Below, one piece after another: positions 1 to 11,876 of a DNA stretch of 11,876 bases (position 1 is its first letter; every line of letters begins with the position of its first letter). This DNA comes from Nanobdellota archaeon (GTDB taxonomy: Archaea > Nanobdellota > Nanobdellia > Nanobdellales > Nanobdellaceae): NCBI GenBank assembly GCA_020697515.1, contig JAIXNB010000015.1, positions 1 through 11,876 of the forward strand. Reading direction: 5' to 3'. Position numbers and translations under genes: made by a program. The notes under the pieces are model-generated. The model searched no databases. It worked only from the letters and a program-made list of their open reading frames with translations, and was not told the DNA's origin.

Positions 1-60
1 AGTGATAGGGAGGATAATAGAGGTGTATCCTAATGGATGGCAAGTTGATATAAATTCTCC
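1..60. repeat. Left arm of a 60-bp inverted repeat (pairs with 146-205)
   Basis: Base-by-base check, position i against 206-i: 58 of 60 are Watson-Crick. The two exceptions (31/175 and 55/151) are both T opposite G. The arm starts exactly at window position 1. Confidence 0.95.
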
Positions 61-378
61 ATAAGTATAATAATTATTTAGATCTGTTTTTGTTATATCT
101 ACAAATTCATATACAGCATCTCTTATTAACAAGAATCCATGGTAAGGAGAGTTTATATCAACTTGCCATCCATTGGGATACACCTCTATTATCCTCCCTA
201 TCACTATATCTCCTTTATTTGGTATATATATCCCAGATAGAGGAGTAATTTTTATTTTGTTCCCTCTAACTTCTTTTATAGCTACTGAGGATGCTACTGC
301 ATAGTCTCCAATAAAATAATAAGCACCCTCCAGCCTGTCCCCTCTTTTACCTATTACAGTCCCTGGTACCACTATCAT
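1..378 (-). CDS. rrp4: Exosome complex RNA-binding cap subunit Rrp4, N-terminal 126 codons (partial; runs off window start; the last ~20 codons lie in an inverted-repeat arm and do not look like Rrp4)
   Basis: Manual minus-strand translation from ATG at 378: MIVVPGTVIGKRGDRLEGAYYFIGDYAVASSVAIKEVRGNKIKITPLSGIYIPNKGDIVIGRIIEVYPNGWQVDINSPYHGFLLIRD... This matches the Rrp4 pattern: VVPG N-terminal domain, then PL.G.Y.P..GD.VIG.V......W.VDI..PY.A.L of the S1 domain. No stop codon down to position 1. The ATG overlaps the TGA of the upstream gene (ATGA at 378-375). Confidence 0.75.
   Translation of the reverse strand, partial: MIVVPGTVIGKRGDRLEGAYYFIGDYAVASSVAIKEVRGNKIKITPLSGIYIPNKGDIVIGRIIEVYPNGWQVDINSPYHGFLLIRDAVYEFVDITKTDLNNYYTYGEFISTCHPLGYTSIILPIT
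146..205. repeat. Right arm of the 60-bp inverted repeat; this arm is genuine rrp4 S1-domain coding sequence
   Basis: Reverse complement of 1-60 apart from two transitions. On the minus strand it encodes, in frame, IVIGRIIEVYPNGWQVDINSP. Confidence 0.95.
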
Positions 379-824
379 TCTATTTCTCTTTTTATTTTAT
401 CAAATAGATCGATTAATTCTTTTAATTTGCTCTCAAATTCGTCTAATTTCTCTTTTAATCTTTCAATTTTCTTTTCGGCAATACTTTCATCAATCATTTT
501 TATTTCTAGCGCTCCTTTACTCTTCACCAATTTCTCATAAACCTTTTGAATAATTTTTCCAGCTTCAGTTTTTCCCTCCAGATGATTTCTTATTGTTGTT
601 TCAGACCTACCTACTTCTTCCGCTATCTGCTCGATAGTCATGCCTGCTTTTCTTCTAGCGAATGCTGCGGCAGCTACAGCTAAAGAATCTACCCATGTAA
701 CTCTATCACGAGGATCCTTTATTTTCTCTATAACCTCGGGATCAAATAATGCTGCCACTAACAAGGCTGTTTCTAGTTTTTTCACATCTTCTTTACCCAA
801 AGGTTGTAGAGGTACTACTTCCAT
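375..824 (-). CDS. Helix-turn-helix DNA-binding protein with C-terminal coiled coil (function unknown)
   Basis: 149-aa ORF. The central segment RRKAGMTIEQIAEEVGRSETTIRNHLEG is a typical HTH (TrpR / sigma-70 region 4-like). The C-terminal ~45 aa are heptad-like and K/E/L-rich (EKKIERLKEKLDEFESKLKELIDLFDKIKREIE). The stop overlaps the rrp4 start. Confidence 0.7.
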   Translation of the reverse strand: MEVVPLQPLGKEDVKKLETALLVAALFDPEVIEKIKDPRDRVTWVDSLAVAAAAFARRKAGMTIEQIAEEVGRSETTIRNHLEGKTEAGKIIQKVYEKLVKSKGALEIKMIDESIAEKKIERLKEKLDEFESKLKELIDLFDKIKREIE

Positions 825-846
825 TTCCTATATGATTGTTGTTGAG

Positions 847-854
847 CTTTTAAA
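847..854 (-). promoter_or_regulatory. Candidate archaeal TATA box for the HTH-rrp4 unit
   Basis: Minus-strand TTTAAAAG, centred ~26 nt upstream of the ATG at 824. This is leaderless-type spacing. Confidence 0.4.
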
Positions 855-962
855 TCAAATATAACCGAAAAAATAATGCTTGGATTTTAAAAATGTATAA
901 CCCCTCAGAAATTGGACTGATATTAAAATTAATTAAAAATAAATCAGATCGGGGTTTTAGTT

Positions 963-2063
963 CTACAGACCTTCTTTCAAAAGCCTAGTTAATAAGTATT
1001 TTTTCTCTCTCTCGTATTTTATTTTTACCAGATCCTCTCTCAACACGCGTAACACGTTACTTATAACAGAATACAACCCATATCCCTCACTAGATGCATA
1101 TAAAGATATTTTGCTACCAATCAATCTTGCTCTTACAACAAAGTACCTAGATCGTATTTTTTTAATGTGCATTATTAATGTTGGTCTTTCTCCTATCAAA
1201 TCTGTAAACCTTTGAACTAGTTTTTCTACTCTCTTTTTTATCCATTCTATATCGTACTCATCCAAGGGTATTCCATGAATTACTAGATTGAACTCCATCT
1301 TTTTATGATATGCTATATATCCCGCTAATATCTCTTTGGCAGATATCATACCCTTTAATTTAGAGTTAACTACTGGTATAGCAAATATTTTATTTTCTAG
1401 TAATAATCTTACAACATCTTTCAATTTGCTTTTGGGTTTTACAGTTAATAGGGGTGTAGACATTATACTTCTCACCTCTACCGAAAATCTTATTTCAGCA
1501 ATCTCACCAACTTTTGGTCGTTCTTTTTCAAATAGAATGTTTCTAACAATATCTCCCGCGGTTACCATCCCTACTGGCCTATCACTCTCATCTAGGACTA
1601 CAAGTCTAGATACTCCTTTTCTCTTCATTATTGCTATTGCTTTCGTTACAGGTTCTCTTTCATATATGGTAACAACCTCCTCATGCATGTATTTCTCTAC
1701 TTTTTCATTAAGAAACTCAGAATCTTTTATTTTCTCTAAAACATCATATATATCTATAATAGCAATCTCTCCACTCGCAGATTCAATTGGAAGTACCCTT
1801 ACATTGGCAGCAACCATCTTTTCTATAACTTTTAATATATCACTAGTATCACTTTCTGATAGAGGTCTCACTCGTATTACGTAATTTCCTATTTTTGCAT
1901 CTAAATTGAAAGCAACTTTTACGAGAACATCTCTAGGCAGAATTCCATAGTATTTCCCCTCCTCATCCAAGACTATTATATGTTTATTTTCTTTTATTGC
2001 TCCAAGAATTTCTCGAATTTTTGTATCTTTCTTTGCAAAAACTATTCTATCATCAGACTCCAT
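963..2063 (-). CDS. Four-CBS-domain protein (two Bateman modules) fused to a C-terminal HPF/RaiA-like (S30AE-like) domain
   Basis: 366-aa ORF. Four CBS motifs are recognisable: HIIVLDEEGKYYGILPRDVL, VRVLPIESASGEIAIIDIYDVL, VSRLVVLDESDRPVGMVTAGDIV and IFAIPVVNSKLKGMISAKEIL. The C-terminal 111 aa follow a different pattern (next feature). Confidence 0.9.
   Translation of the reverse strand: MESDDRIVFAKKDTKIREILGAIKENKHIIVLDEEGKYYGILPRDVLVKVAFNLDAKIGNYVIRVRPLSESDTSDILKVIEKMVAANVRVLPIESASGEIAIIDIYDVLEKIKDSEFLNEKVEKYMHEEVVTIYEREPVTKAIAIMKRKGVSRLVVLDESDRPVGMVTAGDIVRNILFEKERPKVGEIAEIRFSVEVRSIMSTPLLTVKPKSKLKDVVRLLLENKIFAIPVVNSKLKGMISAKEILAGYIAYHKKMEFNLVIHGIPLDEYDIEWIKKRVEKLVQRFTDLIGERPTLIMHIKKIRSRYFVVRARLIGSKISLYASSEGYGLYSVISNVLRVLREDLVKIKYEREKKYLLTRLLKEGL
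966..1298 (-). other. C-terminal domain (aa 256-366) resembling the ribosome hibernation promoting factor fold (HPF/RaiA/YfiA family)
   Basis: Sequence: MEFNLVIHGIPLDEYDIEWIKKRVEKLVQRFTDLIGERPTLIMHIKKIRSRYFVVRARLIGSKISLYASSEGYGLYSVISNVLRVLREDLVKIKYEREKK. It follows the beta-alpha-beta-beta-beta-alpha order and the conserved positions of the family as I recall them: M.[IL].[IV].G start, K.[LV].KL...F helix, [LV].[IV]...KK strand, AS.EG..[LM]Y..I motif, and a basic terminal helix. Confidence 0.6.
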
Positions 2064-2084
2064 TTATGTATATTATGCTAAAAG

Positions 2085-2093
2085 TTTATTTAT
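2085..2093 (-). promoter_or_regulatory. Candidate TATA box for the CBS/HPF-like gene
   Basis: Minus-strand ATAAATAAA, centred ~26 nt upstream of the ATG at 2063. Confidence 0.35.
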
Positions 2094-2173
2094 CTCACAA
2101 GATGATATTCTAATCTACAACTACATTTATTACATTCTTAACCCTACAAAAGCAAAAAATAAAGAATTGGTTC

Positions 2174-2536
2174 TTACTTCTTCTTTTTCTTCGAAAGTCC
2201 TGTTTCTAACTCTCTCTCCAACTTTGCTTCAATTCTCACAGCTTTTTCCAGAATTCTTCTTATTATCCAAAAATCTCTTGCAATTATCATAATACCTAGC
2301 ATTAAAATCCATGGGAGAATAGACCAACCTACAACTACCAATGTTAATGCATGATATTGCTGAGCAGCAGTTTGGGTAATCTCTGAGACAATATTTCCTA
2401 TACCCAAAACTATTAGTAATACAATAAACGCTGTTATAATAATTATTAGGTCCTCAATGAATATCTCGAGTTTCTCCATAGCATATCTAAACCTCTGGAT
2501 TTTATCCTTTACCATAAGAATATTAATAGCCATCAT
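2174..2536 (-). CDS. Small integral membrane protein, unknown function
   Basis: 120-aa ORF with two or three hydrophobic spans (IIIITAFIVLLIVLGIGNIV; LTLVVVGWSILPWILMLGIMII) and a basic, helical C-terminal tail ending KKKKK. A TATA-like CATAAATA (2561-2568, minus) lies ~28 nt upstream of the ATG. Confidence 0.65.
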   Translation of the reverse strand: MMAINILMVKDKIQRFRYAMEKLEIFIEDLIIIITAFIVLLIVLGIGNIVSEITQTAAQQYHALTLVVVGWSILPWILMLGIMIIARDFWIIRRILEKAVRIEAKLERELETGLSKKKKK

Positions 2537-2683
2537 TGAATATAAAAGTATAGTATCGATTATTTATGTAATAAATCAACGGAGAGAAAATAAAATATCA
2601 TATAATTAGTGCATAGACCAACTAATAGTTTAGTAACTATTTGCTCTATTTTGCGGATATATGTCAAGTACTAAAAGTTCAAT

Positions 2684-2698
2684 AGAAAGATTTATATA
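2684..2698 (+). promoter_or_regulatory. Candidate BRE/TATA (AGAAAGA-TTTATATA) for the HExxH gene
   Basis: TTTATATA at 2691-2698 is centred ~28 nt upstream of the ATG at 2723 and is preceded by a purine-rich BRE-like stretch. Confidence 0.45.
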
Positions 2699-2722
2699 TC
2701 ACCACCATACAGTAATAATAAT

Positions 2723-3441
2723 ATGAGAGCATATTATAATTTCGGAGAGGATAAAAAATATCTAAAAAATATAAAAATAAAGATTGTGCATGATGATGAT
2801 ATAGAATTTCCATGTTATAGGCCTAAAGAGGAAACAATATATATTAAAAAAGTGTTTCTAAAAACCTAGATGTTATTGCACATGAACAATCCCATGCAAT
2901 TGTAGATAAAAAGTATGAAATATGGAAAAAGATAGTAGGTCCTTTCTACGAAAAGTATGAGGACGAATATAATATGATTGTTGAAACTGTTACAGATGAA
3001 ATATGGGGTTATATAGAGAAAAAATTTCATGAAGCAGATGGGAGATTGTTCAGAATAAATGAGGATAAGATACCTGCTCAAACACAATTTGAGAAGGAGT
3101 GTATAATTGATATATATTGTTATAGAGATTTTTACAAATCACTTAATAAACTAAGTAGAAAAGTTGCAGAAAGGTTTAAAGAAAAATATGGAGATAAAGC
3201 AGGAGAATTTGTGTGCTTGGTTCAAGAGATACAAGGATTAGATGAGCTTTTGGCACATGCTGTTGGAGGACAAGTATTAGGTGGAGATGCAATATTCTAT
3301 AAGGGTTATTATTTGTTTGGAGGCTCTGCTACTATTTATAAACTCCGGGAAATGCTAAATGAAAAGGGATACTCCTATGTTACTGATATACTCTTTTCTC
3401 AAAGAGTTAAAAGAGCTAAAAAGCTAATAGGAGAGATCTAG
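2723..3441 (+). pseudogene. HExxH-motif putative zinc metallopeptidase, reading frame broken by a -1 shift between ~2846 and 2866 (pseudogene, homopolymer sequencing error, or programmed frameshift)
   Basis: ORF A runs 2723-2869: MRAYYNFGEDKKYLKNIKIKIVHDDDIEFPCYRPKEETIYIKKVFLKT*. The -1 frame is open from 2848 and reads KSVSKNLDVIAHEQSHAIVDKKYEIWKKIVGPFYEKYEDEYN before the ATG at 2974 used in the ORF track. HEQSH sits at 2881-2895, so it is excluded by the track's start. A6 (2846-2851) and A5 (2860-2864) runs lie in the overlap. Confidence 0.55.
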
Positions 3442-3477
3442 AGATAAAAAATACATCGGCCTCATAAGGGATTAGTA

Positions 3478-4107
3478 TTACTTTTTCTTTGATACAGCTT
3501 CATCTAATATCTCTGCTGGGAGTACAAAATACCGTCCTACTTTCTTCTTCCAGTTTTTCTCTTTCTTTTTTTTCTTAGAGTCATCAGTTAGCCATCTTGT
3601 CAACATTATAAAAACTCCAACTAGTACTAAAAATGTAAATAATCCAGTTTCTATTAAATACTTATATAGACTTTCTAATATTAGTTTAGATATCATACCA
3701 ACTGCTGTTGGGTTCCCCTTGAATGCATACAATGCTGCAATCACTACTGAGAGTCCTAAAACTCCGCTAAATATAGCCTGCCTCTTTTTTCTAGTATCTT
3801 CACCACCTGTTGGATTCCTAGCAAAAATACTGAATGCTATGAGTACCAGTAGTATAGTAAGAATCTCATAAAAAAACATTGCAAAAAACCTTTGAGTAAA
3901 TATTATATTATTTGTACTATATATATAATAAAGACTAAATACAAATGAGATCGCTACCATGATTCTTTCTTGATTTTTAAATATCCCTATTTTGTGTAAA
4001 AGCCCATATATCATTGTAAAAATTACCAAAAATGGCCCTAATAAGGTAGATATCCCATAGTTATTCAGGAGGCTCATAAATAAAGAGAGGTTTAACTCAG
4101 CGGCCAT
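3478..4107 (-). CDS. Paralogous 5-TM membrane protein, copy 3 (unrecognised family), with a long lysine-rich C-terminal tail
   Basis: 209-aa ORF. The N-terminus LLNNYGISTLLGPFLVIFTMIYGLLHKIGIF aligns with the same motif in the two upstream genes. About five hydrophobic spans. Tail: DDSKKKKKEKNWKKKVGRYFVLPAEILDEAVSKKK. Confidence 0.8.
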   Translation of the reverse strand: MAAELNLSLFMSLLNNYGISTLLGPFLVIFTMIYGLLHKIGIFKNQERIMVAISFVFSLYYIYSTNNIIFTQRFFAMFFYEILTILLVLIAFSIFARNPTGGEDTRKKRQAIFSGVLGLSVVIAALYAFKGNPTAVGMISKLILESLYKYLIETGLFTFLVLVGVFIMLTRWLTDDSKKKKKEKNWKKKVGRYFVLPAEILDEAVSKKK

Positions 4108-4126
4108 TTTATTATATTATCTTTAA

Positions 4127-4684
4127 TTAATTACTATTATTGTTTGAGGATGTTTCGCTAGAGGAAAGCCATTTCATTAGCAACCAAAACACCACCACTA
4201 ATACAAGAATAGCTATTATATCTGGAGTTATTATTTTGCCTACAAACTGTGCAAAACCAAATCCCTCTAAATAACTTGCAGAAGTGCTTCCTCTAATCCC
4301 ATAGACTGCCAGGAGTACTATTACTATTATTGTTACAAGCGCTATTATACCACGTGCAGTATCCCCTATTTCTTCTGGTTTTATGAAAAATGCTATAGCA
4401 ATAGCAAATAGGAATAAACCTAGAATCCAAACTGTAGCATGAGGAATTAAGTATACCATCCATTCCATTAATTCCTGATGGGCTAATGCCATAAGTGTAA
4501 ATCCAAAAGCAAATCCAGCATGTAGTTTTCTACCTACACTATCGTCATTATCTATTTTAAATAGATTAGCGGCTTCCAAAAGCAAAAATACTATGGAATA
4601 TATTAAAATAAATGGTAAAATTATATTATAAAACCCATATGTTGATAAAGATGTAGTTGCTATCTCATAAAAGTTATATGTCAT
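4127..4684 (-). CDS. Paralogous 5-TM membrane protein, copy 2 (unrecognised family)
   Basis: 185-aa ORF. N-terminal motif SLSTYGFYNIILPFILIYSIVFLLLEAANLF. About five hydrophobic spans. Polar tail SSSETSSNNNSN. Confidence 0.8.
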   Translation of the reverse strand: MTYNFYEIATTSLSTYGFYNIILPFILIYSIVFLLLEAANLFKIDNDDSVGRKLHAGFAFGFTLMALAHQELMEWMVYLIPHATVWILGLFLFAIAIAFFIKPEEIGDTARGIIALVTIIVIVLLAVYGIRGSTSASYLEGFGFAQFVGKIITPDIIAILVLVVVFWLLMKWLSSSETSSNNNSN

Positions 4685-4689
4685 TTTTG

Positions 4690-5268
4690 TTAATTATTAT
4701 TTTGTTCTTGGGATTTGGGCTCTCTAACCAGCAAATAAGCAATTACTCCGAATGCTGCCAACATTAGTATAGCCCCTATATAATCTCCATATTTACTCCA
4801 GAAGCTCCCAGGAACTCCCGATCCCGAGATTCCCTTTAAGAGACCAAAATAGTTCAATATAACTAATATAAGAAGTATCGTTGCTGGTATTCCCATATAT
4901 TTTTTAAATTTAGCATAGGTATCCGTCTTTATTAGCTCTCCTTCAGGCAATGCAAAGGCTGCTACTACTAATATTATTGAAAATACTATTATTAGAAAAA
5001 TCGCTATTAATGGAACTACTCCTCTTATACTCGTTACAGCGTGATAAGACCCTATTACTATAGATGCTATTGCAAAAGCAATCATGGAGGATATGCTCCT
5101 TGCCATCTTTGCCTCTTTAACGTTATTACTATTGAATGCATCTCCAAAGATCCTTGTATTGAGGAGTATACCATATGTAAGTGCATAAACTAATATCCAA
5201 GGAAGTATTATGTTAAAAAATCCAAATTTATCTAGAAGATTAATCGCCCCTTCATAAATAGCAACCAT
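4690..5268 (-). CDS. Paralogous 5-TM membrane protein, copy 1 (unrecognised family)
   Basis: 192-aa ORF. N-terminal motif LLDKFGFFNIILPWILVYALTYGILLNTRIF. About five hydrophobic spans. Polar tail REPKSQEQNNN. Only 5 nt separate it from copy 2. Confidence 0.8.
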   Translation of the reverse strand: MVAIYEGAINLLDKFGFFNIILPWILVYALTYGILLNTRIFGDAFNSNNVKEAKMARSISSMIAFAIASIVIGSYHAVTSIRGVVPLIAIFLIIVFSIILVVAAFALPEGELIKTDTYAKFKKYMGIPATILLILVILNYFGLLKGISGSGVPGSFWSKYGDYIGAILMLAAFGVIAYLLVREPKSQEQNNN

Positions 5269-5292
5269 TTTATATTGGTATATCTAGCAAAT

Positions 5293-5300
5293 TATATAAA
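5293..5300 (-). promoter_or_regulatory. Candidate internal TATA box in front of the membrane-protein trio
   Basis: Minus-strand TTTATATA, centred ~28 nt upstream of the ATG at 5268. Confidence 0.4.
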
Positions 5301-5316
5301 ATATTATCTTTAATTG

Positions 5317-5526
5317 TTAGCCTTCTAATTCTTCTACGATTATGGCATTTGTTGGGCAAGCTTCCTCTGCTTTCTTTACAAGCATTATAGAATCCTTATC
5401 CTCCACTACTTTCCTCGTTTCTTTTGCTTTTCCATCTTTGTCAAAAATAAAAAGATCTTTAGATATTAAAACGCATGCACCACAAGCTATACATTTTTCT
5501 TTGTCTACATAAAAAAATATTCTCAT
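5317..5526 (-). CDS. Small single-cluster [4Fe-4S]/[3Fe-4S] ferredoxin (Pyrococcus/Thermotoga type)
   Basis: 69 aa: VDKEKCIACGACV...DGKA...ACPTNAI. It has the C-x2-C-x2-C ... C-P ligand pattern, and its length and layout are those of the ~65-aa archaeal monocluster ferredoxins. Confidence 0.85.
   Translation of the reverse strand: MRIFFYVDKEKCIACGACVLISKDLFIFDKDGKAKETRKVVEDKDSIMLVKKAEEACPTNAIIVEELEG
5471..5509. repeat. 39-bp exact direct repeat, copy 1 (within ferredoxin A)
   Basis: acgcatgcaccacaagctatacatttttctttgtctaca is identical to 5685-5723. Flanking bases differ on both sides. Confidence 0.95.
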
Positions 5527-5536
5527 TAAGAGAGAT

Positions 5537-5743
5537 TTATTCCTCTTCTGTAATTATTGCACCTGTTGGGCAGGCATCCTTCGCCTCTTTGACCTTCTGT
5601 ATTAGATCACCATCCGAGATTTTGGTTATTTTGGTCTGTGATTTTCCATCAGACTCAAATTCGAATATTTCTGGAGCTATTGCTACGCATGCACCACAAG
5701 CTATACATTTTTCTTTGTCTACAGAAACTACAATCTTTACCAT
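5537..5743 (-). CDS. Small single-cluster ferredoxin, tandem paralogue
   Basis: 68 aa: VDKEKCIACGACVAIAPEIFEFESDGKS...ACPTGAI. Same ligand pattern. It lies 10 nt upstream of the other copy. Confidence 0.85.
   Translation of the reverse strand: MVKIVVSVDKEKCIACGACVAIAPEIFEFESDGKSQTKITKISDGDLIQKVKEAKDACPTGAIITEEE
5685..5723. repeat. 39-bp exact direct repeat, copy 2 (within ferredoxin B)
   Basis: Identical to 5471-5509. Encodes VDKEKCIACGACV in both genes. Confidence 0.95.
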
Positions 5744-5766
5744 TCTGTATTATATTTCTAACTTAT

Positions 5767-5774
5767 TTTTTATA
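5767..5774 (-). promoter_or_regulatory. Candidate TATA box for the ferredoxin genes
   Basis: Minus-strand TATAAAAA, centred ~27 nt upstream of the ATG at 5743. Confidence 0.45.
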
Positions 5775-5857
5775 GCTTTCCATAAGAAACTTGTATAACG
5801 TTCTCAATTCTAAAATAATGGGTATAGGGGTGTCGTAGTGCCAAAATTAGTATTTAT

Positions 5858-6382
5858 TTATACGGAAGAAGTGTTGTTTTGCTTGGAAAGTACAGCTTTT
5901 ATATTCTTTTTAACATTATTATAAACTTTCCACCATTTACCAATCTCGAGCCAATAATAATAAGGTACCAAATGTATATATTTCCTGTGAACTGTTGCAA
6001 GAACTTTGTAATTTTCCTTTAGTACTTTTCTTACAAGTTGCTTAAATTTTTCTGAATAGAATTCCATTGGCCCTATCTCGTCTATTACAATAATTCTATC
6101 TCTATACAAATCGATCTTATCCAGCATATATGAAGAAAATATATCCAAATTCTCCTTTATTATGAAATACTTTCCAATTCTATAGGGTGTTCTTACATTA
6201 GTGCTTGCGAGTAAAATTTTCTCGCCCCACGTAGCCACTATCTTAAACCCAACCCTCTTTTTGTTCTCTCTAATTTCCTCTGTCCAAAACCCAAAGAAAT
6301 TGTCTATTCCGAACTCTGTTATTACTCTCCTAATAAGGCTTGTTTTACCTGTCCTTGGATTACCTGAAATAAATATTTTCAT
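5858..6382 (-). CDS. Nucleoside-triphosphatase, THEP1 / NTPase_1 family
   Basis: 174 aa: MKIFISGNPRTGKTSLIRRV (P-loop), GFWTEEIRENKKRVGFKIV, IGKYFI, IIVIDEIGPMEFYSEKF (Walker B) and VLATVHRK. Order and spacing match the THEP1 family. The P-loop is slightly deviant (GNPRTGKT). A TATA-like AATATATTTT (6404-6413, minus) lies ~26 nt upstream. Confidence 0.85.
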   Translation of the reverse strand: MKIFISGNPRTGKTSLIRRVITEFGIDNFFGFWTEEIRENKKRVGFKIVATWGEKILLASTNVRTPYRIGKYFIIKENLDIFSSYMLDKIDLYRDRIIVIDEIGPMEFYSEKFKQLVRKVLKENYKVLATVHRKYIHLVPYYYWLEIGKWWKVYNNVKKNIKAVLSKQNNTSSV

Positions 6383-6544
6383 TTTTAGAATTAAGATTTA
6401 GAGAAAATATATTATTTCTATACCAATCTAAATTTTCTGATTATACTCCCTCCATCTACAGTTTCTATGATACGTGGATATGTATTTTTGCTAACTTAGA
6501 GCTGTCCTTTAGTCTCGAAAATATTATTTATTAAAATTTTATCT

Positions 6545-7372
6545 ATGACCATTAAAATTATGGATACTTATGTTAGGGTTACTGATTTTTTAGATTACTT
6601 ATTCTGTCCTCGAAAAATATATTTGAAGAGGGTTTTGGATCTAGAGGAAGAAAGAGGGGAAAAAGCATTATTTGGTACTCTAGTACACTCTGTTTTTGAT
6701 AGATTGAATGAGGTGGAAGAGAGTATAGTTTATGAAATAGACGATGAGTATTCATTCGATTATATCCTAAAGATATATGAAATAACAGCTAATAAAATAA
6801 TAAGCGATGTTTTAAACAACTATTCTAAGGAAATTGATAAATTTTCGCTATCTAAGGAATATCTATTCATAGAGTTGAAGAAACACATCTATGATGATGT
6901 ATATGAGAGAGCCAAGAATGTTTACAACACTATGAAGACCTATCAAGAGTATGGGATCTTTCTGTGGGACAAGTTAGAACCTAAAATAAAATCAGAATTA
7001 GAACTTCTATCAGATACTTTGAAAATCGTTGGGAGGGTTGATAGGATAGAATTCTATAGAGATTACATTATTCCTGTTGAAATAAAGTCAGGGAACTATT
7101 CTAATAGCCATATTTTTCAATTACATGCATATGCACTTTTACTTAAACATAATTTTCCAAGATATATTATTGATAGAGGAATAATATATTATACAAAATC
7201 TAGGAAGAGAAAGGAAGTAAGATTAAATTATAGATGTTTTAAGAGAGTTCTTACTATGAGAGATAGAATACTTAGTATAATAGAAAATGAACAAGATCCG
7301 GGTATGAATAAAAATCTAAATAAATGTGTAAAATGCACATTCTACGAAATTTGTAAAAAATTAAAATTATGA
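6545..7372 (+). CDS. cas4: Cas4-family (DUF83) RecB-like PD-(D/E)xK exonuclease with a 4-Cys Fe-S cluster signature; no cas or CRISPR neighbours
   Basis: 275 aa. N-terminal Cys in FLDYLFCPRKIYLK, GTLVHSVF, IVGRVDRIEF (motif II), IPVEIKSG (motif III), FQLHAYALLL (QxxxY), and C-terminal CVKCTFYEIC (C-x2-C-x5-C). Confidence 0.85.
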   Translation: MTIKIMDTYVRVTDFLDYLFCPRKIYLKRVLDLEEERGEKALFGTLVHSVFDRLNEVEESIVYEIDDEYSFDYILKIYEITANKIISDVLNNYSKEIDKFSLSKEYLFIELKKHIYDDVYERAKNVYNTMKTYQEYGIFLWDKLEPKIKSELELLSDTLKIVGRVDRIEFYRDYIIPVEIKSGNYSNSHIFQLHAYALLLKHNFPRYIIDRGIIYYTKSRKRKEVRLNYRCFKRVLTMRDRILSIIENEQDPGMNKNLNKCVKCTFYEICKKLKL

Positions 7373-7388
7373 AAAACTATAGGGAAAA

Positions 7389-7757
7389 ATGGAGGTTGAA
7401 GGGGTAATAGAAGCTATTAGCTATCGAAATAAAGGAATAAAAGTTAGAGGCAAATGGTACAGTGTTTCTGAAGATGTTTTAAAACAAGTTCAAAAAAATC
7501 ATAAAGTGAAGCTGACTTTGGACGATTTTGGAAATGTAATGGATATTAAAATATTAGGTTATGAAGAAAAGATAGATAAAGATATTAAAATTGAATCTCT
7601 TAGGGCATCAATCGAGATTCTAAAACTAGTCTTTCAATATGGACAACCATATGATATCTCACCGGCCACCCAATCTAATAATTTAGAGGAACAAGTAAGA
7701 CAGTTTACAACTATTCTAGAAAAAACATACAAAAGGATTTTAAATATGTTGAAATGA
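7389..7757 (+). CDS. Hypothetical 122-aa protein (beta-rich N-terminal half, helical C-terminal half), translationally coupled to the NFACT-R gene
   Basis: ORF begins MEVEGVIEAISYRNKGIKVRGKWYSVSEDVLK... No family recognised. Its TGA overlaps the next ATG (ATGA at 7754-7757), and it starts 16 nt after the cas4-like stop. Confidence 0.65.
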   Translation: MEVEGVIEAISYRNKGIKVRGKWYSVSEDVLKQVQKNHKVKLTLDDFGNVMDIKILGYEEKIDKDIKIESLRASIEILKLVFQYGQPYDISPATQSNNLEEQVRQFTTILEKTYKRILNMLK

Positions 7758-8533
7758 TTATCGAATTAGATAAAAGAAAATCCATCTTTGAAAATGCTTC
7801 TATTTATTTTGAAAAGGCTAAAAAGCTAAGAAGTAAGTTAAAAAGATTAGAAATCCAAATAAATGCTACTAAAGAGAAGATTTCCCAAATAGGTAAGGAA
7901 ATTGAAGATGAAAAAAGAAAACTGGAGAAAAAAAGAAAGAAAAAGTGGTATGAGAAATTTAGATGGTTCCATACTTCTAATGGATTTTTGTTAGTTGCAG
8001 GAAAGGACGCAATTACTAACGAAATATTGATAAGAAAATATCTTGATCATACTGATCTTGTTTTTCATGCAGAAATTCATGGATCGCCTTTTGGCGTGCT
8101 AAAAAGGGGAAAAGATGCTAATGAAGTAGATATTACTGAAGCGGCACAATTTGTTGCATCATATTCAAAAGCTTGGAAACAAAAACTGGCATATATAGAG
8201 GTCTATTATATATATCCTGAGCAAGTATCCAAACAGGCGCCAGCTGGGGAGTATCTACCAAAAGGCTCCTTTATGATCTATGGAAAAAAAAATTATGTTA
8301 GAGCTAAACTTGAAATAGCATTAGGAGTTGATCCTAATAAAAATCCAATACCTGGGGTTCCATCTTCAGTATCGAAGAAAACTAGCGAATATGTAGTTAT
8401 AATCCCTGGTAATAAGAAGCCTCTAGAAACTGCAAAAGAAATATCAAGTTTTTTAAAAATACCTGTAGAAGATATACTACCTTTTATCCCAGGGGAAAGC
8501 GAAATAGTTAAAAAAGTTAGTGCGATTAGGTAA
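7754..8533 (+). CDS. Truncated NFACT/RqcH (Rqc2/Tae2/FbpA-family) homologue: distal coiled-coil helix, NFACT-R (DUF814) and C-terminal region only
   Basis: 259 aa. NASIYFEKAKKLRSKLKRLE followed by a K/E coiled coil, then WYEKFRWFHTSNGFLLVAGKDAITNEILIRKYLDHTDLVFHAEIHGSPFGVLK. This is the classic NFACT-R motif (F.W..S.[DN]G..[IL].[VA]G[KR][DN]...N..L......D...HA...G[SA]). There is no NFACT-N or HhH portion. Confidence 0.85.
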   Translation: MIIELDKRKSIFENASIYFEKAKKLRSKLKRLEIQINATKEKISQIGKEIEDEKRKLEKKRKKKWYEKFRWFHTSNGFLLVAGKDAITNEILIRKYLDHTDLVFHAEIHGSPFGVLKRGKDANEVDITEAAQFVASYSKAWKQKLAYIEVYYIYPEQVSKQAPAGEYLPKGSFMIYGKKNYVRAKLEIALGVDPNKNPIPGVPSSVSKKTSEYVVIIPGNKKPLETAKEISSFLKIPVEDILPFIPGESEIVKKVSAIR

Positions 8534-8574
8534 TAATATTTCCAATATTCCGTCTATACATTTGGTAGTAGGTT

Positions 8575-8590
8575 GAGAAAAGTTTATAAA
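8575..8590 (+). promoter_or_regulatory. Candidate BRE/TATA (GAGAAAAG-TTTATAAA) for the surface-protein gene
   Basis: TTTATAAA at 8583-8590 is centred ~26 nt upstream of the ATG at 8613, with a purine-rich BRE-like element immediately upstream. Confidence 0.5.
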
Positions 8591-8612
8591 TTTCTACACC
8601 CAATAGTAGTAC

Positions 8613-10196
8613 ATGAAGGCCAAATATCTCCTACCTGTATTAGCTCTTTTACTAATACCTACAGTATTTGCACAAAGCGTAGATATAGAGTTTGTAGAGT
8701 ATCCTAACTATGTCACACCAGAAACTTTACAGCAAACAACATTGTCATTAAAATTAATAGCCAATGTGAACACTGACGATCACCAAATAATAGATAATGG
8801 ATATGATATAGCAGATCCAACATTGTATGTGTATGTATTAGGAGAGGATGGTAGAATATTGTATGAAGAGAACTTATATGTGGGATTAGCGGAGGGAGTG
8901 AATACAATTGATGTGTATATTCCAGGAAGCATTATTGCAGAGAAACTGTCTCAGAAAGATGGGTCTATAAGGGTGATAGCCAATATGACAGTTGTATTTA
9001 CTAATGGTACTAATGTGATTACAAGATATGACGATACATCTATCACTATATATATAAAGGATAATATTAAATCAGGAGAGCTGGATATAATATATCTAGC
9101 ACCAAATTTAACTAAGCAAAAAGAATTTGATAGGAGGGTGTATACATTCCTAGTAGGTATAAAGAACGATGGTTCTAGGAAGGCAAACAATGTTGCAGTG
9201 TATTTGAGAGTATACGACCAATATGGGGTGAGAAAAATAAATCTAGTAAACTATATGTCCATCGGCGCGCAGAAATATGTTGAAGCAAGATTCGATGTAA
9301 ACTTTGGTATATTGGAGCCAGGACATTATAAATTAGCCATAGAGGTATATAAAGAGGGATTAAAAGTATTTGAAAAAGAATATCCAATAATAATAGCTCC
9401 CCTACAAATTAATGCTATAAAAGTATATGACGTTTCAATATTACCACCAGAATACGAACCAGGGGACTTAGTTCTTATAAAAATGACATTAAGAAATGTC
9501 TTAGATAAGCCAATAGTAGTCAAGCCAGAGCTGGTTTCTGAAGATCTAAATCTGTATAGATCTTTAAGCAGCTTTGAGTTCGCTCCAGGAGAGGCAAAAG
9601 AGTTTAAGGTAGTAGTGCCATTACCGGAAGATCTAAAACCTGGAAGATATCATGTAACATTAAGATTCATGTATAATCAGTATGTAAAGCAGGATTACAA
9701 AGTTGTATTAAGAATTCCAGGAGGGATGGGTGACATAGAACAAGAGTTAGTTACTGCTGAGTTATTAGCACCCTCGGAGATAATAGTAGGAGAGAATAAA
9801 ACTGCAAAATTAATACTAACATCACACGTAGAGGATATAATACCGGTTAAAATAGAGGCATACGCTACTAAGGTAGATATAAAATTATCGAAGGATCAAT
9901 TAATTGTTGGTGGAATTGGATTGAAAAAGAAAATAACATTAGATATAATAGGAAAACAGACAGGAAAAGATAATATAACAGTGGAAGTAATAGATTTGAA
10001 CACAGGTAAGGTTCTTGCTAAGATAGAACAACCAATAGATATACTACCCCCATCTCCTAACGAGACAAAAACAATTACAAGAACAATATTAGGTAAGGAT
10101 AAATTGATAATATTGATTGGAGGAATAATTATATTGGCAGCAATAGCATTATTCCTTATGAAAAGAAAGGAAGAAGAGGAAAAACCCTCTGAGTAG
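8613..10196 (+). CDS. Secreted, C-terminally membrane-anchored cell-surface protein with CARDB/Ig-like repeats (S-layer or adhesin candidate)
   Basis: 527 aa. Signal peptide MKAKYLLPVLALLLIPTVFAQS. CARDB-like stretch FLVGIKNDGSRKANNVAVYLRVYDQYG and further beta-rich ~100-aa modules. Several N-x-S/T sequons (NMT, NGT, NLT, NKT, NIT, NET). C-terminal TM LIILIGGIIILAAIALFLM followed by KRKEEEEKPSE. Confidence 0.8.
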   Translation: MKAKYLLPVLALLLIPTVFAQSVDIEFVEYPNYVTPETLQQTTLSLKLIANVNTDDHQIIDNGYDIADPTLYVYVLGEDGRILYEENLYVGLAEGVNTIDVYIPGSIIAEKLSQKDGSIRVIANMTVVFTNGTNVITRYDDTSITIYIKDNIKSGELDIIYLAPNLTKQKEFDRRVYTFLVGIKNDGSRKANNVAVYLRVYDQYGVRKINLVNYMSIGAQKYVEARFDVNFGILEPGHYKLAIEVYKEGLKVFEKEYPIIIAPLQINAIKVYDVSILPPEYEPGDLVLIKMTLRNVLDKPIVVKPELVSEDLNLYRSLSSFEFAPGEAKEFKVVVPLPEDLKPGRYHVTLRFMYNQYVKQDYKVVLRIPGGMGDIEQELVTAELLAPSEIIVGENKTAKLILTSHVEDIIPVKIEAYATKVDIKLSKDQLIVGGIGLKKKITLDIIGKQTGKDNITVEVIDLNTGKVLAKIEQPIDILPPSPNETKTITRTILGKDKLIILIGGIIILAAIALFLMKRKEEEEKPSE

Positions 10197-10207
10197 CTTT
10201 TACCAAT

Positions 10208-10218
10208 CTTTGTTTTTT
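10208..10218 (+). terminator. Oligo-T tract, candidate archaeal terminator after the surface-protein gene
   Basis: ctttgtttttt lies 12 nt after the stop codon. Archaeal RNA polymerase terminates at T-runs. Confidence 0.4.
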
Positions 10219-10309
10219 ACCATTAATTTATTATTTTTTAAATAATATCTAGAAATTCTCGACTTGTCACAATTTTTAGCAATTTTATCTCATAACCATT
10301 AACCGTATT

Positions 10310-10408
10310 GGGCCCGCGGGGATTCGAACCCCGGACCTCCGGCTTTCTTAGATGTACGAGCGCCAAGTCTTATAAGGCCGGCGCTCTCACCGCTGAGCTA
10401 CGGGCCCT
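10310..10408 (-). tRNA. tRNA-Ile, anticodon UAU, with a 26-nt intron at the canonical 37/38 position; CCA not encoded
   Basis: Minus-strand manual fold: GGGCCCG-TA-GCTC-AGCGGTGA-GAGC-G-CCGGC-CTTATA[intron]A-GCCGG-AGGTC-CGGGG-TTCGAAT-CCCCG-CGGGCCC-A. All stems are fully Watson-Crick, the T-loop is TTCGAAT and the discriminator is A73. The anticodon TAT is at 10375-10373. Confidence 0.85.
10346..10371 (-). other. tRNA intron (26 nt) with a bulge-helix-bulge-like context
   Basis: Positions 32-35 (CTTA) pair with the intron's TAAG to give a 4-bp central helix. It is flanked by 3-nt bulges: TA|A on the 5' side and AA|A on the 3' side. The outer helix is weak (about 2 bp). Confidence 0.7.
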
Positions 10409-10434
10409 ATATAAGTAATAAAGAGGTAGCAACT

Positions 10435-10444
10435 ATTTTAAAGA
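10435..10444 (-). promoter_or_regulatory. Candidate TATA box for the tRNA gene
   Basis: Minus-strand CTTTAAAATA, centred ~31 nt upstream of tRNA position 1. Confidence 0.45.
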
Positions 10445-10705
10445 TTTTTGGTAGGTAATCTACTTAATACCTTAAACTAATGTATTGTTGGATGATTTAG
10501 GCCGGGAACTCTCTGTTAGTATCTAATAATCTAATAAAATCCATGTATTATCCTTAAAATCAAATATAGAAGCATATTAAAAATACCCATAAAAGTATAT
10601 AGTTATTATATGGTTCTAAAAAACTAAATTATTATACTGTATCTTGAACTTGACGTATAGAAGTAGTTCATAACAATACTTAAGATTACGTAACATAACA
10701 TATTT

Positions 10706-11876
10706 ATGGATGAACAACTAGTAAAAAAGTTACAGGAGCTATATTCAATAGTTAAAGATGAAATCTCTGAGTCTCTTAAAAAAGGTAGCTGTACTATCAT
10801 TATATCCCATAAAGCAATCGCTGCCGTAGATATAAAGCTCGCAGAGGAAGTATTAAATAACCCTAAAAATACCTTAAAGGTTCTGGAAAAATTCTTTAGC
10901 CAAAAACTCGGGATTAATGTAAAAGTTAGAATAAAAGATCTACCCAAGGATCGTTGGATAAGAATTAGAGATATCCGTTCAGAGCATATAGGAAAATTAA
11001 TCGAAACTGAAGGGATAATAAAGGTATCTACTGAAGTAAGACCTGTTGTAGTGGCTGTTAAGTACTACCATAATAAATGTGGGGGAGAATTCTGGTATAA
11101 CCTGTTTGGAGAAGATAGTGACAAAGAACAGTTTATTAGATTCAAAATAGAAAAACCTAAAGTTTGTTCCGTGTGTGGTGAATCCGAAGGTAGATTCGTA
11201 GAAGTAGAAAGAAAAACTGTAGATATGCAAAGACTTTTGGTTGAGGAGACTCCTGATCAAATTGAAAGAGGGGAGCAACCCGCACAAATTATTGTGTTTC
11301 TTACAGAAGATTTGTGCGAACCTCGTATGGAAAGAAGGACAATCCCTGGTACTAGAATAAGGATTGTAGGAGTTGTAGAGGCTCTTCAAAATTCAAAGAC
11401 ACAGGCTGTGTTAGATTTAATAATAAATGCGGTATATATAGAACCTGTGGAAAAAGATATAGAGGATATCAAAATTTCAGAGGAGGATGAGCTGAAAATT
11501 AAAGAGTTAGCAAAATCAGGAGATGTTCTCAACATTCTAGCTAGATCTATCGCCCCTAGCATACATGGAAAGCATTATGAGCATATAAAAAAAGCATTAA
11601 TATTACAATTGGTAGGCGGCGTAAAGAAAATACGATCCGATGGTACAAGGGTAAGGGGAGATATACATATGCTTCTTATAGGAGATCCGGGAACTGGAAA
11701 GAGTATAACACCAGATTCTAAAATAGTCATTATTGATGAAAGTAGAAAAATAAATGTTGTACCAATAGGAGAGTTTGTAGATCAATTAATTGAAGATAAT
11801 ACGAATAAAGTAATATTATATGGTGATACAGAGATTTTAAATTTGTTAGATATTAATAGAATTTTTTATACTATAT
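10706..11876 (+). CDS. mcm: MCM replicative helicase, N-terminal ~390 codons (partial; runs off window end), interrupted by an intein after the Walker A lysine
   Basis: Manual translation from ATG 10706, with an in-frame TAA at 10691: MDEQLVKKLQELYS...WIRIRDIRSEHIGKLIETEGIIKV...HNKCGGEF...CSVCGESEG (Zn motif)...MQRLLVEETPDQIERGEQP...ILARSIAPSIHGKHYEHIKKALILQLVGGVKKIRSDGTRVRGDIHMLLIGDPGTGK. No stop codon to the window end. This gene is absent from the supplied ORF track. Confidence 0.9.
   Translation, partial: MDEQLVKKLQELYSIVKDEISESLKKGSCTIIISHKAIAAVDIKLAEEVLNNPKNTLKVLEKFFSQKLGINVKVRIKDLPKDRWIRIRDIRSEHIGKLIETEGIIKVSTEVRPVVVAVKYYHNKCGGEFWYNLFGEDSDKEQFIRFKIEKPKVCSVCGESEGRFVEVERKTVDMQRLLVEETPDQIERGEQPAQIIVFLTEDLCEPRMERRTIPGTRIRIVGVVEALQNSKTQAVLDLIINAVYIEPVEKDIEDIKISEEDELKIKELAKSGDVLNILARSIAPSIHGKHYEHIKKALILQLVGGVKKIRSDGTRVRGDIHMLLIGDPGTGKSITPDSKIVIIDESRKINVVPIGEFVDQLIEDNTNKVILYGDTEILNLLDINRIFYTI
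11702..11876 (+). mobile_element. N-terminal part of an intein inserted in the MCM P-loop (Ser-1 intein), truncated by the window end
   Basis: After GDPGTGK the expected SQLL continuation is replaced by SITPDSKIVIIDESRKINVVPIGEFVDQLIEDN... This fits intein block A ([CS]-[ILV]-x-x-[DG]-[ST]-x-[ILV]) followed by a typical 'x-I-x-E-[LF]-V' strand. The Walker A loop of MCM is a known intein insertion site. Confidence 0.7.

Follow-up and report, generated by a model that had tools for sequence, protein, structure and literature searches.

The window analyzed here comprises the 11,876 nucleotides of contig JAIXNB010000015.1 (positions 1 to 11,876, forward strand) in the assembly GCA_020697515.1 of a Nanobdellota archaeon. 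Three consecutive genes on its minus strand, designated A, B and C in the order of transcription, are predicted to encode small membrane proteins of 192, 185 and 209 residues, with gaps of 5 nt between A and B (4685-4689) and 19 nt between B and C (4108-4126). The open reading frame (ORF) coordinates reproduce exactly the strand, sizes and gaps given in the original prediction, which had described the genes as tandem paralogs of a membrane protein family from the DNA alone; the three N-terminal strings quoted there are found verbatim at residues 11-41 of A, 12-42 of B and 13-43 of C. The features of the trio are the following.

4690..5268, minus strand: subunit A, an ORF of 192 residues with an N-terminal amphipathic helix, a glycine, five predicted transmembrane (TM) helices and a short N/Q-rich tail.
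4127..4684, minus strand: subunit B, an ORF of 185 residues with an A-like architecture and an S/N-rich tail.
3478..4107, minus strand: subunit C, an ORF of 209 residues with a five-TM core like that of A and B and a C-terminal extension predicted to be cytoplasmic.
3481..3585, minus strand: C-terminal extension of C (residues 175-209), made up of the Lys-rich run KKKKKEKNWKKK and, after it, the predicted helix VGRYFVLPAEILDEAVSKKK.
5146..5238, minus strand: family signature in A (residues 11-41), covering the end of the N-terminal helix, the glycine and TM1 with its Pro-aromatic motif.
4559..4651, minus strand: family signature in B (residues 12-42), from the alignment of the family.
3979..4071, minus strand: family signature in C (residues 13-43), from the alignment of the family.
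5293..5300, minus strand: candidate archaeal TATA box TTTATATA, about 28 nt 5' of the ATG of A, read from the sequence.

The homology among the three proteins extends over their full length. Pairwise BLASTP yielded E-values of 2e-8 for A and B, 4e-7 for B and C (170 residues aligned) and 1e-3 for A and C. Hidden Markov models (HMMs) built from Woesearchaeota proteins alone, with no sequence of the window included, matched A, B and C with E-values of 1.6e-23, 2.2e-18 and 1.3e-16, respectively. In addition, hhalign comparison of the A-, B- and C-type ortholog groups, drawn from six Nanopusillaceae genomes, gave probabilities of 98.8-99.3% across about 170 columns. The original claim of paralogy thus holds on formal alignment for each pair. 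By sequence comparison, A, B and C are three diverged paralogs of one small-membrane-protein family of Nanoarchaeota.

Hydropathy analysis revealed five hydrophobic spans in each of A, B and C, as had been estimated, in agreement with the helices of the AlphaFold2 models of B and C. The model of B (pLDDT 82.8, pTM 0.61) is all-helical, with a surface helix at residues 5-15 followed by long helices at 18-39, 49-67, 70-100, 108-133 and 154-177, the last of which is preceded by a short helical loop. The model of C (pLDDT 73, pTM 0.40) repeats this arrangement of helices and adds a C-terminal helix at residues 182-208. The tails are N/Q/S-rich in A and B and Lys-rich in C, as first described. Cysteine is absent from all three proteins and histidine is rare, with 1, 3 and 1 residues in A, B and C, respectively.

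The 16-17-residue N-terminus is a conserved and confidently predicted helix. In A, it leads into a TM1 that carries an L-P-[FW] motif, and four more TM helices follow. The consensus N-terminus of the family reads x-F-x-x-A-I-x-F-F-x-x-x-G-[FVIL]-[YF]-D-V-[VI]-L-P-F-L-L-V-F-T-I-V-F-A-I-L-E-K-T-K, and TM2 starts after this motif with K-N-L-N-A-M-V-A-F. The Gly and the Pro-Phe pair are nearly invariant in 98 family members, and invariant among 24 proteins encoded by the first gene of the trio. The sole conserved Asp of the family, located in Woesearchaeota at the start of TM1, is replaced by Asn, Asn and Ser in A, B and C, respectively; more generally, the Asp and Glu residues that flank TM1 in Woesearchaeota are Asn or other residues in the proteins of the window. 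A, B and C share the features that define the family, namely the N-terminal helix, the Gly, the Pro-aromatic motif in TM1, five TM helices, a length of about 175-220 residues and an arrangement of three tandem paralogs on one strand.

The original prediction had assigned the three proteins to no known family, and our searches of family and structure databases bear this out. The best Pfam E-values of A, B and C were 0.004 or higher, far under the cut-offs; no NCBIfam match exceeded 17 bits, no PHROGs match reached E<0.03, and PADLOC gave zero matches. When 98 relatives were scanned singly, no family was common to more than 8 of them. A sequence-profile search of the PDB returned designed TM proteins as the best matches (E=0.04). 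Foldseek searches, in which a fold match was defined by E<=0.001 or a meaningful TM-score, were run with the models of B and C, and no PDB match was better than E=4.2 (B, TMq 0.28; the best for C was E=5.1); the best match of B among the viral structures of BFVD had E=3.1. No relative of the family was detected in the IMG/VR viral contigs. A confident assignment to a characterized family, which would have spoken against the original description, was therefore not obtained in any of these searches, and the protein family matches no known family or fold by the tests applied.

Two weak leads emerged from the scan of the relatives, and they raise the slim chance that the family belongs, as a highly diverged branch, to a described one, either the N-terminal membrane domain of DUF2070 (PF09843) or part of Acyl_transf_3 (PF01757). 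Eight of the 98 members matched DUF2070 at about 15 bits against a cut-off of 30 (best E=1.5e-4), with the whole protein aligned consistently to profile positions of about 26-177 out of 561, that is, to the N-terminal 150 or so positions of the profile. Four members matched positions 128-261 of Acyl_transf_3, one of them above the cut-off (P0145, 32.9 bits versus 31). However, the two candidates are mutually exclusive, and such inconsistent matches are typical of helix-helix noise among hydrophobic helices. A, B and C match neither family, nor do most members, and no PDB fold was matched. DUF2070, an archaeal family of predicted membrane proteins, is kept as a lead; its proteins differ in size, comprising about 560 residues.

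The family is large. When the HMM of the three-paralog alignment was run exhaustively against 1.84 billion cluster representatives, 1475 of them matched at E<=1e-3 and 239 at E<=1e-10; almost all are 175-210 residues long. When one genome per GTDB species was scanned with 24 position-1 proteins (those of the first trio gene), at least 553 family loci were confirmed. The best 80 of these at least 553 loci, from which the taxon labels were taken, are labeled Woesearchaeota, Nanoarchaeota, Nanoarchaeia, Nanobdellota or simply 'archaeon', except for one set titled 'uncultured Methanosarcinales archaeon' (L012, L017, L020, L024 and about 20 more loci with CAY*/CAZ* accessions). The latter contigs share the synteny of trio, coiled-coil and ATPase genes described below with Woesearchaeota metagenome-assembled genomes (MAGs), and their labels are therefore probably wrong. 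Within everything examined, the family is restricted to Nanoarchaeota genomes.

A word-indexed homolog search with B alone returned 4 matches, and the named homologs came from a small A-type alignment. They include Nps_03160 of Candidatus Nanopusillus acidilobi, MJ1_0713 of Nanobdella aerobiophila, and proteins of strain YN1, Nanoclepta and Nanobsidianus, all annotated merely as 'hypothetical' or 'uncharacterized membrane protein'. The window stems from a Nanopusillus-like nanoarchaeon. A neighboring protein of the trio falls into one 90% cluster with HIP90618.1 of Candidatus Nanopusillus sp., and the contig itself is also present in hot-spring and vent metagenomes and in the MAG GCA_015662215.1. 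In that MAG (L002, DQUP01000122.1, 4291-4920), the third gene is annotated with 133 residues (4519-4920) although the full 209-residue ORF is intact, so the public record contains a start-codon miscall.

The original prediction recommended that phylogenetic distribution and triplet order be examined, and the triplet turned out to be conserved across most of the nanoarchaeal loci. When the family HMM was run against all ORFs of 84 non-redundant loci, exactly three same-strand tandem members were found in 75. The median gaps are 45 and 8 nt and the median lengths 191, 194 and 189 residues at positions 1, 2 and 3. The exceptions are mostly contig ends; in addition, four copies occur in L010 and L059 and one in L041, and the fourth match of L013 is an 83-residue fragment. 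L010 (503-3405 of GCA_029258795.1) is a divergent locus with four tandem members of 161-174 residues that lack Lys-rich tails. There, a 264-residue protein with apparent TM helices and a coiled coil precedes the family members, which are followed by the genes c1 and c2 described below, an ATPase and a 700-residue membrane protein.

Each position of the trio has its own features. Position 1, which corresponds to A, carries the canonical motif. In position 2, an external loop is conserved (P-H-V-x-G-x-Y-P...D-P-V), and the tail, which is also found in C, consists of a Lys-rich stretch and then an amphipathic helix. Position 3 is marked by an H-P-K-V-L-G motif and a shorter N-terminus. A scored 73 bits with the HMM of position 1 versus 45 and 37 bits with the others, and hhalign aligned the A-type nanoarchaeal group with position 1 at 99.7% probability (score 171), indicating a clean orthology of A, at the level of sequence profiles, with Woesearchaeota position 1. 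C scored 50 bits with position 2 versus 29 and 30 bits with the others and is probably orthologous to Woesearchaeota position 2. The HMM and hhalign scores of B to positions 1 and 2 are similar, leaving its orthology ambiguous.

Direct orthologs of the trio are encoded in related genomes, including that of the cultured N. acidilobi. In N. acidilobi, Nps_03160 (orthologous to A), Nps_03165 and Nps_03170 encode proteins of 191, 209 and 214 residues with five TM domains each. The same trio is represented by Nst1_247, Nst1_246 and Nst1_245, by MJ1_0713-0715 of N. aerobiophila (192, 189 and 220 residues) and by YN1_2640 onward, with MJ1_0713 and YN1_2640 as the A orthologs. In the complete genomes of N. 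acidilobi, N. aerobiophila and YN1 the trio genes overlap or abut. These trios have the same flanks as that of the window, with ferredoxin genes upstream and a CBS-domain gene downstream, and show no difference in kind.

Copy number, order, tight spacing and subunit-specific features thus persist across a deep, genome-reduced lineage, and for this reason we consider it likely that the trio forms a hetero-oligomeric complex rather than a redundant set. The original suggestion to that effect receives strong though indirect support from the retention of the trio in 75 of 84 loci across very divergent Nanoarchaeota, the tiny gaps and the position-specific motifs and tails, from which we infer the assembly itself. 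The three genes are probably co-transcribed, and A, B and C would assemble into one integral-membrane complex. Redundant or alternative paralogs, each homo-oligomeric under different conditions, would fit the single architecture common to all members and the variable loci with four copies or one; B and C are also both closest to Woesearchaeota position 2 by hhalign, hinting at a lineage-specific duplication. The fixed order and spacing of three copies with distinct motifs and tails argue against such paralogs, and loss of superfluous copies would be expected in strongly reduced genomes. We therefore regard redundancy as quite improbable.

The topology of the subunits was deduced from the distribution of charges. 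The K/R counts of the loops favor an N-out/C-in orientation in A (2 versus 8) and C (2 versus 15) and are uninformative in B. In the family consensus, charges are distributed in the same way: loops 1 and 3 and the tail are rich in Lys, and loop 4 is acidic. In each subunit, the N-terminal amphipathic helix would therefore lie outside the cell and the C-terminus in the cytoplasm, with five TM helices between them. The C-terminal extension of C contains 13 K/R in its 35 residues (175-209). Its pattern of a basic run plus a helix is kept in the C-type orthologs and in the consensus of Woesearchaeota position 2, and the hhalign alignment between the C-type group and position 2 spans 180 columns, tail included. 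The positive-inside rule places this tail on the cytoplasmic side, as far as can be read from the sequence, and the extension is probably a cytoplasmic docking element. The basic tail was originally proposed to contact nucleic acid or acidic lipids or proteins; we found no support for nucleic acid, while the tail fits the docking of cytoplasmic partners and acidic lipid head groups equally well.

The gene neighborhood provides a functional pointer in the Woesearchaeota-type loci; where the original prediction named a channel, transporter or scaffold, it indicates a tie to two cytoplasmic coiled-coil proteins and a type-IV-filament ATPase. Neighbor ORFs of the 84 loci were clustered and then re-scored by HMMs on six-frame fragments, which revealed three recurrent genes downstream of the trio.

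c1: about 209 residues, with a Pro-rich N-terminus, a small helical domain and a coiled coil; downstream of and convergent with the trio; 67 of 76 eligible loci.
c2: about 148 residues, with a coiled coil; downstream of the trio; 61 of 73 eligible loci.
c3: about 760 residues, an ATPase of the FlaI/CpaF/GspE type; downstream of the trio; 50 of 70 eligible loci.

The downstream link stands out because the upstream genes vary across loci (translin; SepF plus a DUF11-like surface protein; others). c1 and c2 remain with the trio where the ATPase is absent (L016, L056, L076, L095). Searches of c1 and c2 against Pfam, NCBIfam and the PDB returned generic coiled coils alone. The c3 ATPase carries PF00437 and, in the PDB, is most similar to A. 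fulgidus GspE (2OAP, 1.9e-26), CpaF and FlaI. It also has a Cys-rich N-terminal extension, resembling the ATPases of subclade 4F. A polytopic membrane protein of 700-717 residues follows the ATPase in L010, L094 and L096, and an Ig-like surface protein is often found near the trio in these genomes.

A short, conserved ORF of 45-49 residues (KKPISATIDEELIKWI...HLIEIA) lies directly 5' of the 760-residue ATPase gene in L094 (12977-13114) and L096 (13094-13243). It was considered as a Flp-like pilin and rejected, since its sequence, judged by eye, instead resembles a ribbon-helix-helix regulator; it is possibly a regulator of the locus.

Because this neighborhood is the sole functional pointer, we tentatively propose, as our best reading, that the complex is a membrane-embedded accessory (an anchor, scaffold or stator-like part) of a type-IV-filament-like surface or secretion apparatus, in which the Lys-rich tail and amphipathic helix of the C/position-2 subunit would dock cytoplasmic partners. 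This proposal, taken as a whole, is plausible but falls short of probable. Two points limit our confidence, namely that the trio is transcribed separately and that the lineage of the window lacks the link. Several observations weigh against it. In Woesearchaeota, the trio is transcribed apart from, and convergent with, c1 and c2, and 20 of the 70 eligible loci have no ATPase nearby. Within about 3.5-10 kb on either side of the trio, neither the window nor any other Nanopusillaceae-type locus (L007, L009, N. acidilobi, Nanobdella, YN1) has a homolog of c1, c2 or c3; in these loci, the trio sits between ferredoxin genes and the CBS-domain gene. The trio proteins have no similarity to any known type-IV-filament component, the T2SSF match of the 700-residue membrane protein is sub-threshold (E=0.018) with no hhalign signal, and proteomics of N. 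acidilobi (PMC4935971, Suppl. Data 1) gave no signal for the three proteins. Finally, B and C do not pair off cleanly with Woesearchaeota positions 2 and 3, so that independent duplications, rather than one ancestral triplication, may account for part of the trio.

Alternatively, the trio could work on its own as a hetero-oligomeric channel, transporter or lipid-handling complex unrelated to type-IV-filament machinery, the Woesearchaeota synteny then reflecting no functional coupling. Transporters are commonly regulated by CBS proteins, and a CBS-domain gene lies 3' of the Nanopusillaceae trio, with 1-3 ferredoxin genes 5' of it; DPANN archaea also require unusual uptake systems. The retention of the trio in Nanopusillaceae with no adjacent ATPase or coiled-coil genes, together with the different transcription units of trio and ATPase, is also consistent with an autonomous complex. 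Nevertheless, A, B and C have no conserved charged or polar intramembrane residues of the transporter type, no Cys or His ligands, and no similarity to a transporter family or fold in the searches run. The Nanopusillaceae synteny says little about function, because it includes clearly unrelated housekeeping genes (a Cas4-like nuclease, NFACT-R and exosome subunits), and the link to c1 and c2 survives wide shuffling of the neighborhood. We regard an autonomous complex, rather unlikely in itself, as the main alternative.

The ATPase neighbor raises a further question, namely whether the trio supplies the missing substrates or processing enzymes of nanoarchaeal type-IV filaments, as unusual pilins or as a five-TM prepilin peptidase. 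Cognate pilins of the nanoarchaeal ATPases have not been found, and two nanoarchaea have no recognizable prepilin peptidase, the common form of which has five TM helices (PMC4858521). A conserved Gly before a hydrophobic helix, the tandem paralogs and the ATPase neighbor in Woesearchaeota are in line with such a role. However, type IV pilins and archaellins were rejected as a match, since no basic leader ending in [KR]-[GA] is present and TM1 is followed by four further TM helices with no globular domain. The residues before the conserved Gly are DKF in A, STY in B and NNY in C, leaving no basic residue at position -2. Similarly, the prepilin peptidases (PibD/FlaK, peptidase A24) were rejected, as A, B and C lack both a GxGD motif and a conserved Asp pair and do not match PF01478. 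We consider both roles highly improbable.

The platform proteins (T2SSF/TadC/FlaJ) were examined as another candidate and rejected. No PF00482 match was found, and hhalign of the family profiles against the T2SSF proteins of L091 and L007 and the 700-residue ATPase-adjacent membrane protein gave probabilities below 1%. In the Tad pili, TadB and TadC are tandem, diverged, paralogous polytopic proteins presumed to form a hetero-oligomer with a CpaF-type ATPase. The trio is likewise tandem, diverged, paralogous and polytopic, but it has no T2SSF domain or sequence or profile similarity to these proteins, comprises three paralogs rather than two, and its members are much smaller.

Makarova, Koonin and Albers (2016; PMC4858521) described subclade 4F as a combination of an ATPase with a Cys-rich N-terminus, TadC, a coiled-coil protein and an S-layer-like protein, and could identify no cognate pilins in nanoarchaea. 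Similar to this system, the Woesearchaeota-type trio adjoins such an ATPase, coiled-coil proteins and a large polytopic membrane protein. However, the trio resembles no described component (pilin, TadC/FlaJ, peptidase or FlaF/G) and is transcribed apart from the ATPase, and no such genes are adjacent to it in the lineage of the window. Among the membrane cassettes of Euryarchaeota (Yip1-like arCOG02054, SpoIIM-like arCOG01996 and arCOG09673), 3-4 small polytopic membrane genes are also clustered, and complexes were proposed solely on the basis of genomic context (Makarova, Galperin and Koonin 2015; PMC5898192). Those cassettes consist of unrelated, fast-evolving families with 3-4 TM helices that are recognizable in Pfam, whereas the trio consists of paralogs of one five-TM family.

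A broader version of the filament-accessory proposal would join the five-TM hetero-oligomer of unique fold, the two coiled-coil adaptors and the divergent type-IV-filament ATPase into an apparatus specific to Nanoarchaeota on the surface of the symbiont, with host attachment, or import of lipids or metabolites across the cell-cell contact, as candidate roles. Such an apparatus is unlikely on the present evidence.

Nanoarchaeota and other DPANN archaea are obligate, genome-reduced symbionts, and the way in which their membranes contact and exploit the host has yet to be explained. The trio is probably important to the cell, because it is kept as a fixed operon despite extreme genome reduction. 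Wurch et al. (2016) list Nps_03160, Nps_03165 and Nps_03170 as 'Uncharacterized membrane protein' with five TM domains and Nst1 orthologs (PMC4935971, Suppl. Data 1), with no arCOG, no proteomic signal and no discussion. A full-text search for the locus tags and searches on the family returned no paper discussing these proteins. The trio is thus already known only as nameless hypothetical proteins in databases and in one supplementary table, and its paralogy, its phylum-wide occurrence and its coiled-coil/ATPase link appear to be undescribed in the searched literature. At minimum, these data define a new phylum-wide protein family and a testable prediction of a three-subunit complex. If the tie to the orphan type-IV-filament ATPases of these organisms, whose pilins are not known, is true, the trio would offer a concrete way into the surface machinery of these archaea. 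Cultured systems for such tests exist in N. acidilobi with Acidilobus and in N. aerobiophila with Metallosphaera.

The window is AT-rich, with a GC content of about 32%. If TTTATATA at 5293-5300 is a genuine TATA box, a leaderless transcript beginning at the trio is possible. An exact 13-nt repeat, TTAAAGATAATAT, occurs on the minus strand at 5301-5313 and 4114-4126; two or more matches were obtained in just 6 of 200 shuffles. Both copies lie directly past the stop codon of the preceding gene and 5' of the starts of A and C, at distances to the ATG of 33 nt for A versus 7 nt for C.

In transcription order, the trio of the window is preceded by genes of a THEP1-type NTPase and of two single-cluster 4Fe-4S ferredoxins, the latter in tandem on the minus strand at 5317-5526 and 5537-5743, directly 5' of the trio. 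Upstream of the trio, all Nanopusillaceae-type genomes carry one to three such genes, a feature not shared by Woesearchaeota. On the downstream side follow an orphan plus-strand ORF, a small two-TM protein and a CBS-domain protein. The orphan ORF (2974-3441, plus strand, 155 residues) belongs to no family and occurs in close relatives only. It at least looks like a lineage-specific insertion, because the CBS gene directly follows the trio in N. acidilobi, Nanobdella, YN1 and L009. The two-TM protein (2174-2536, minus strand, 120 residues) lies between trio and CBS gene, has a KKKK tail and a weak Yip1 match (E=0.012), and proved unrelated when tested as a degenerate member of the trio family. 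In L007, a 127-residue protein with a weak Yip1 match follows the trio. Elsewhere in its genome, N. acidilobi encodes several VirB11-family ATPases and TadC proteins.

Farther from the trio, the plus-strand gene at 8613-10196 encodes a 527-residue protein with a hydrophobic N-terminus (a candidate signal peptide), a C-terminal TM anchor and weak matches to CARDB/NPCBM-like Ig domains. It shares weak similarity (E=6e-4) with the DUF11-like surface protein encoded directly 5' of the trio in about 15 Woesearchaeota loci. A tRNA of 99 nt was detected by Rfam (66.8 bits) at 10309-10407 on the minus strand and missed by ARAGORN; its length suggests an intron-containing archaeal tRNA. Finally, the region from 10706 to 11876 on the plus strand, running past the end of the window (L001:3-1604:-), holds an MCM replicative helicase gene interrupted by an intein, with an intein splicing domain (E=2.9e-23) after the MCM_OB and MCM P-loop domains.

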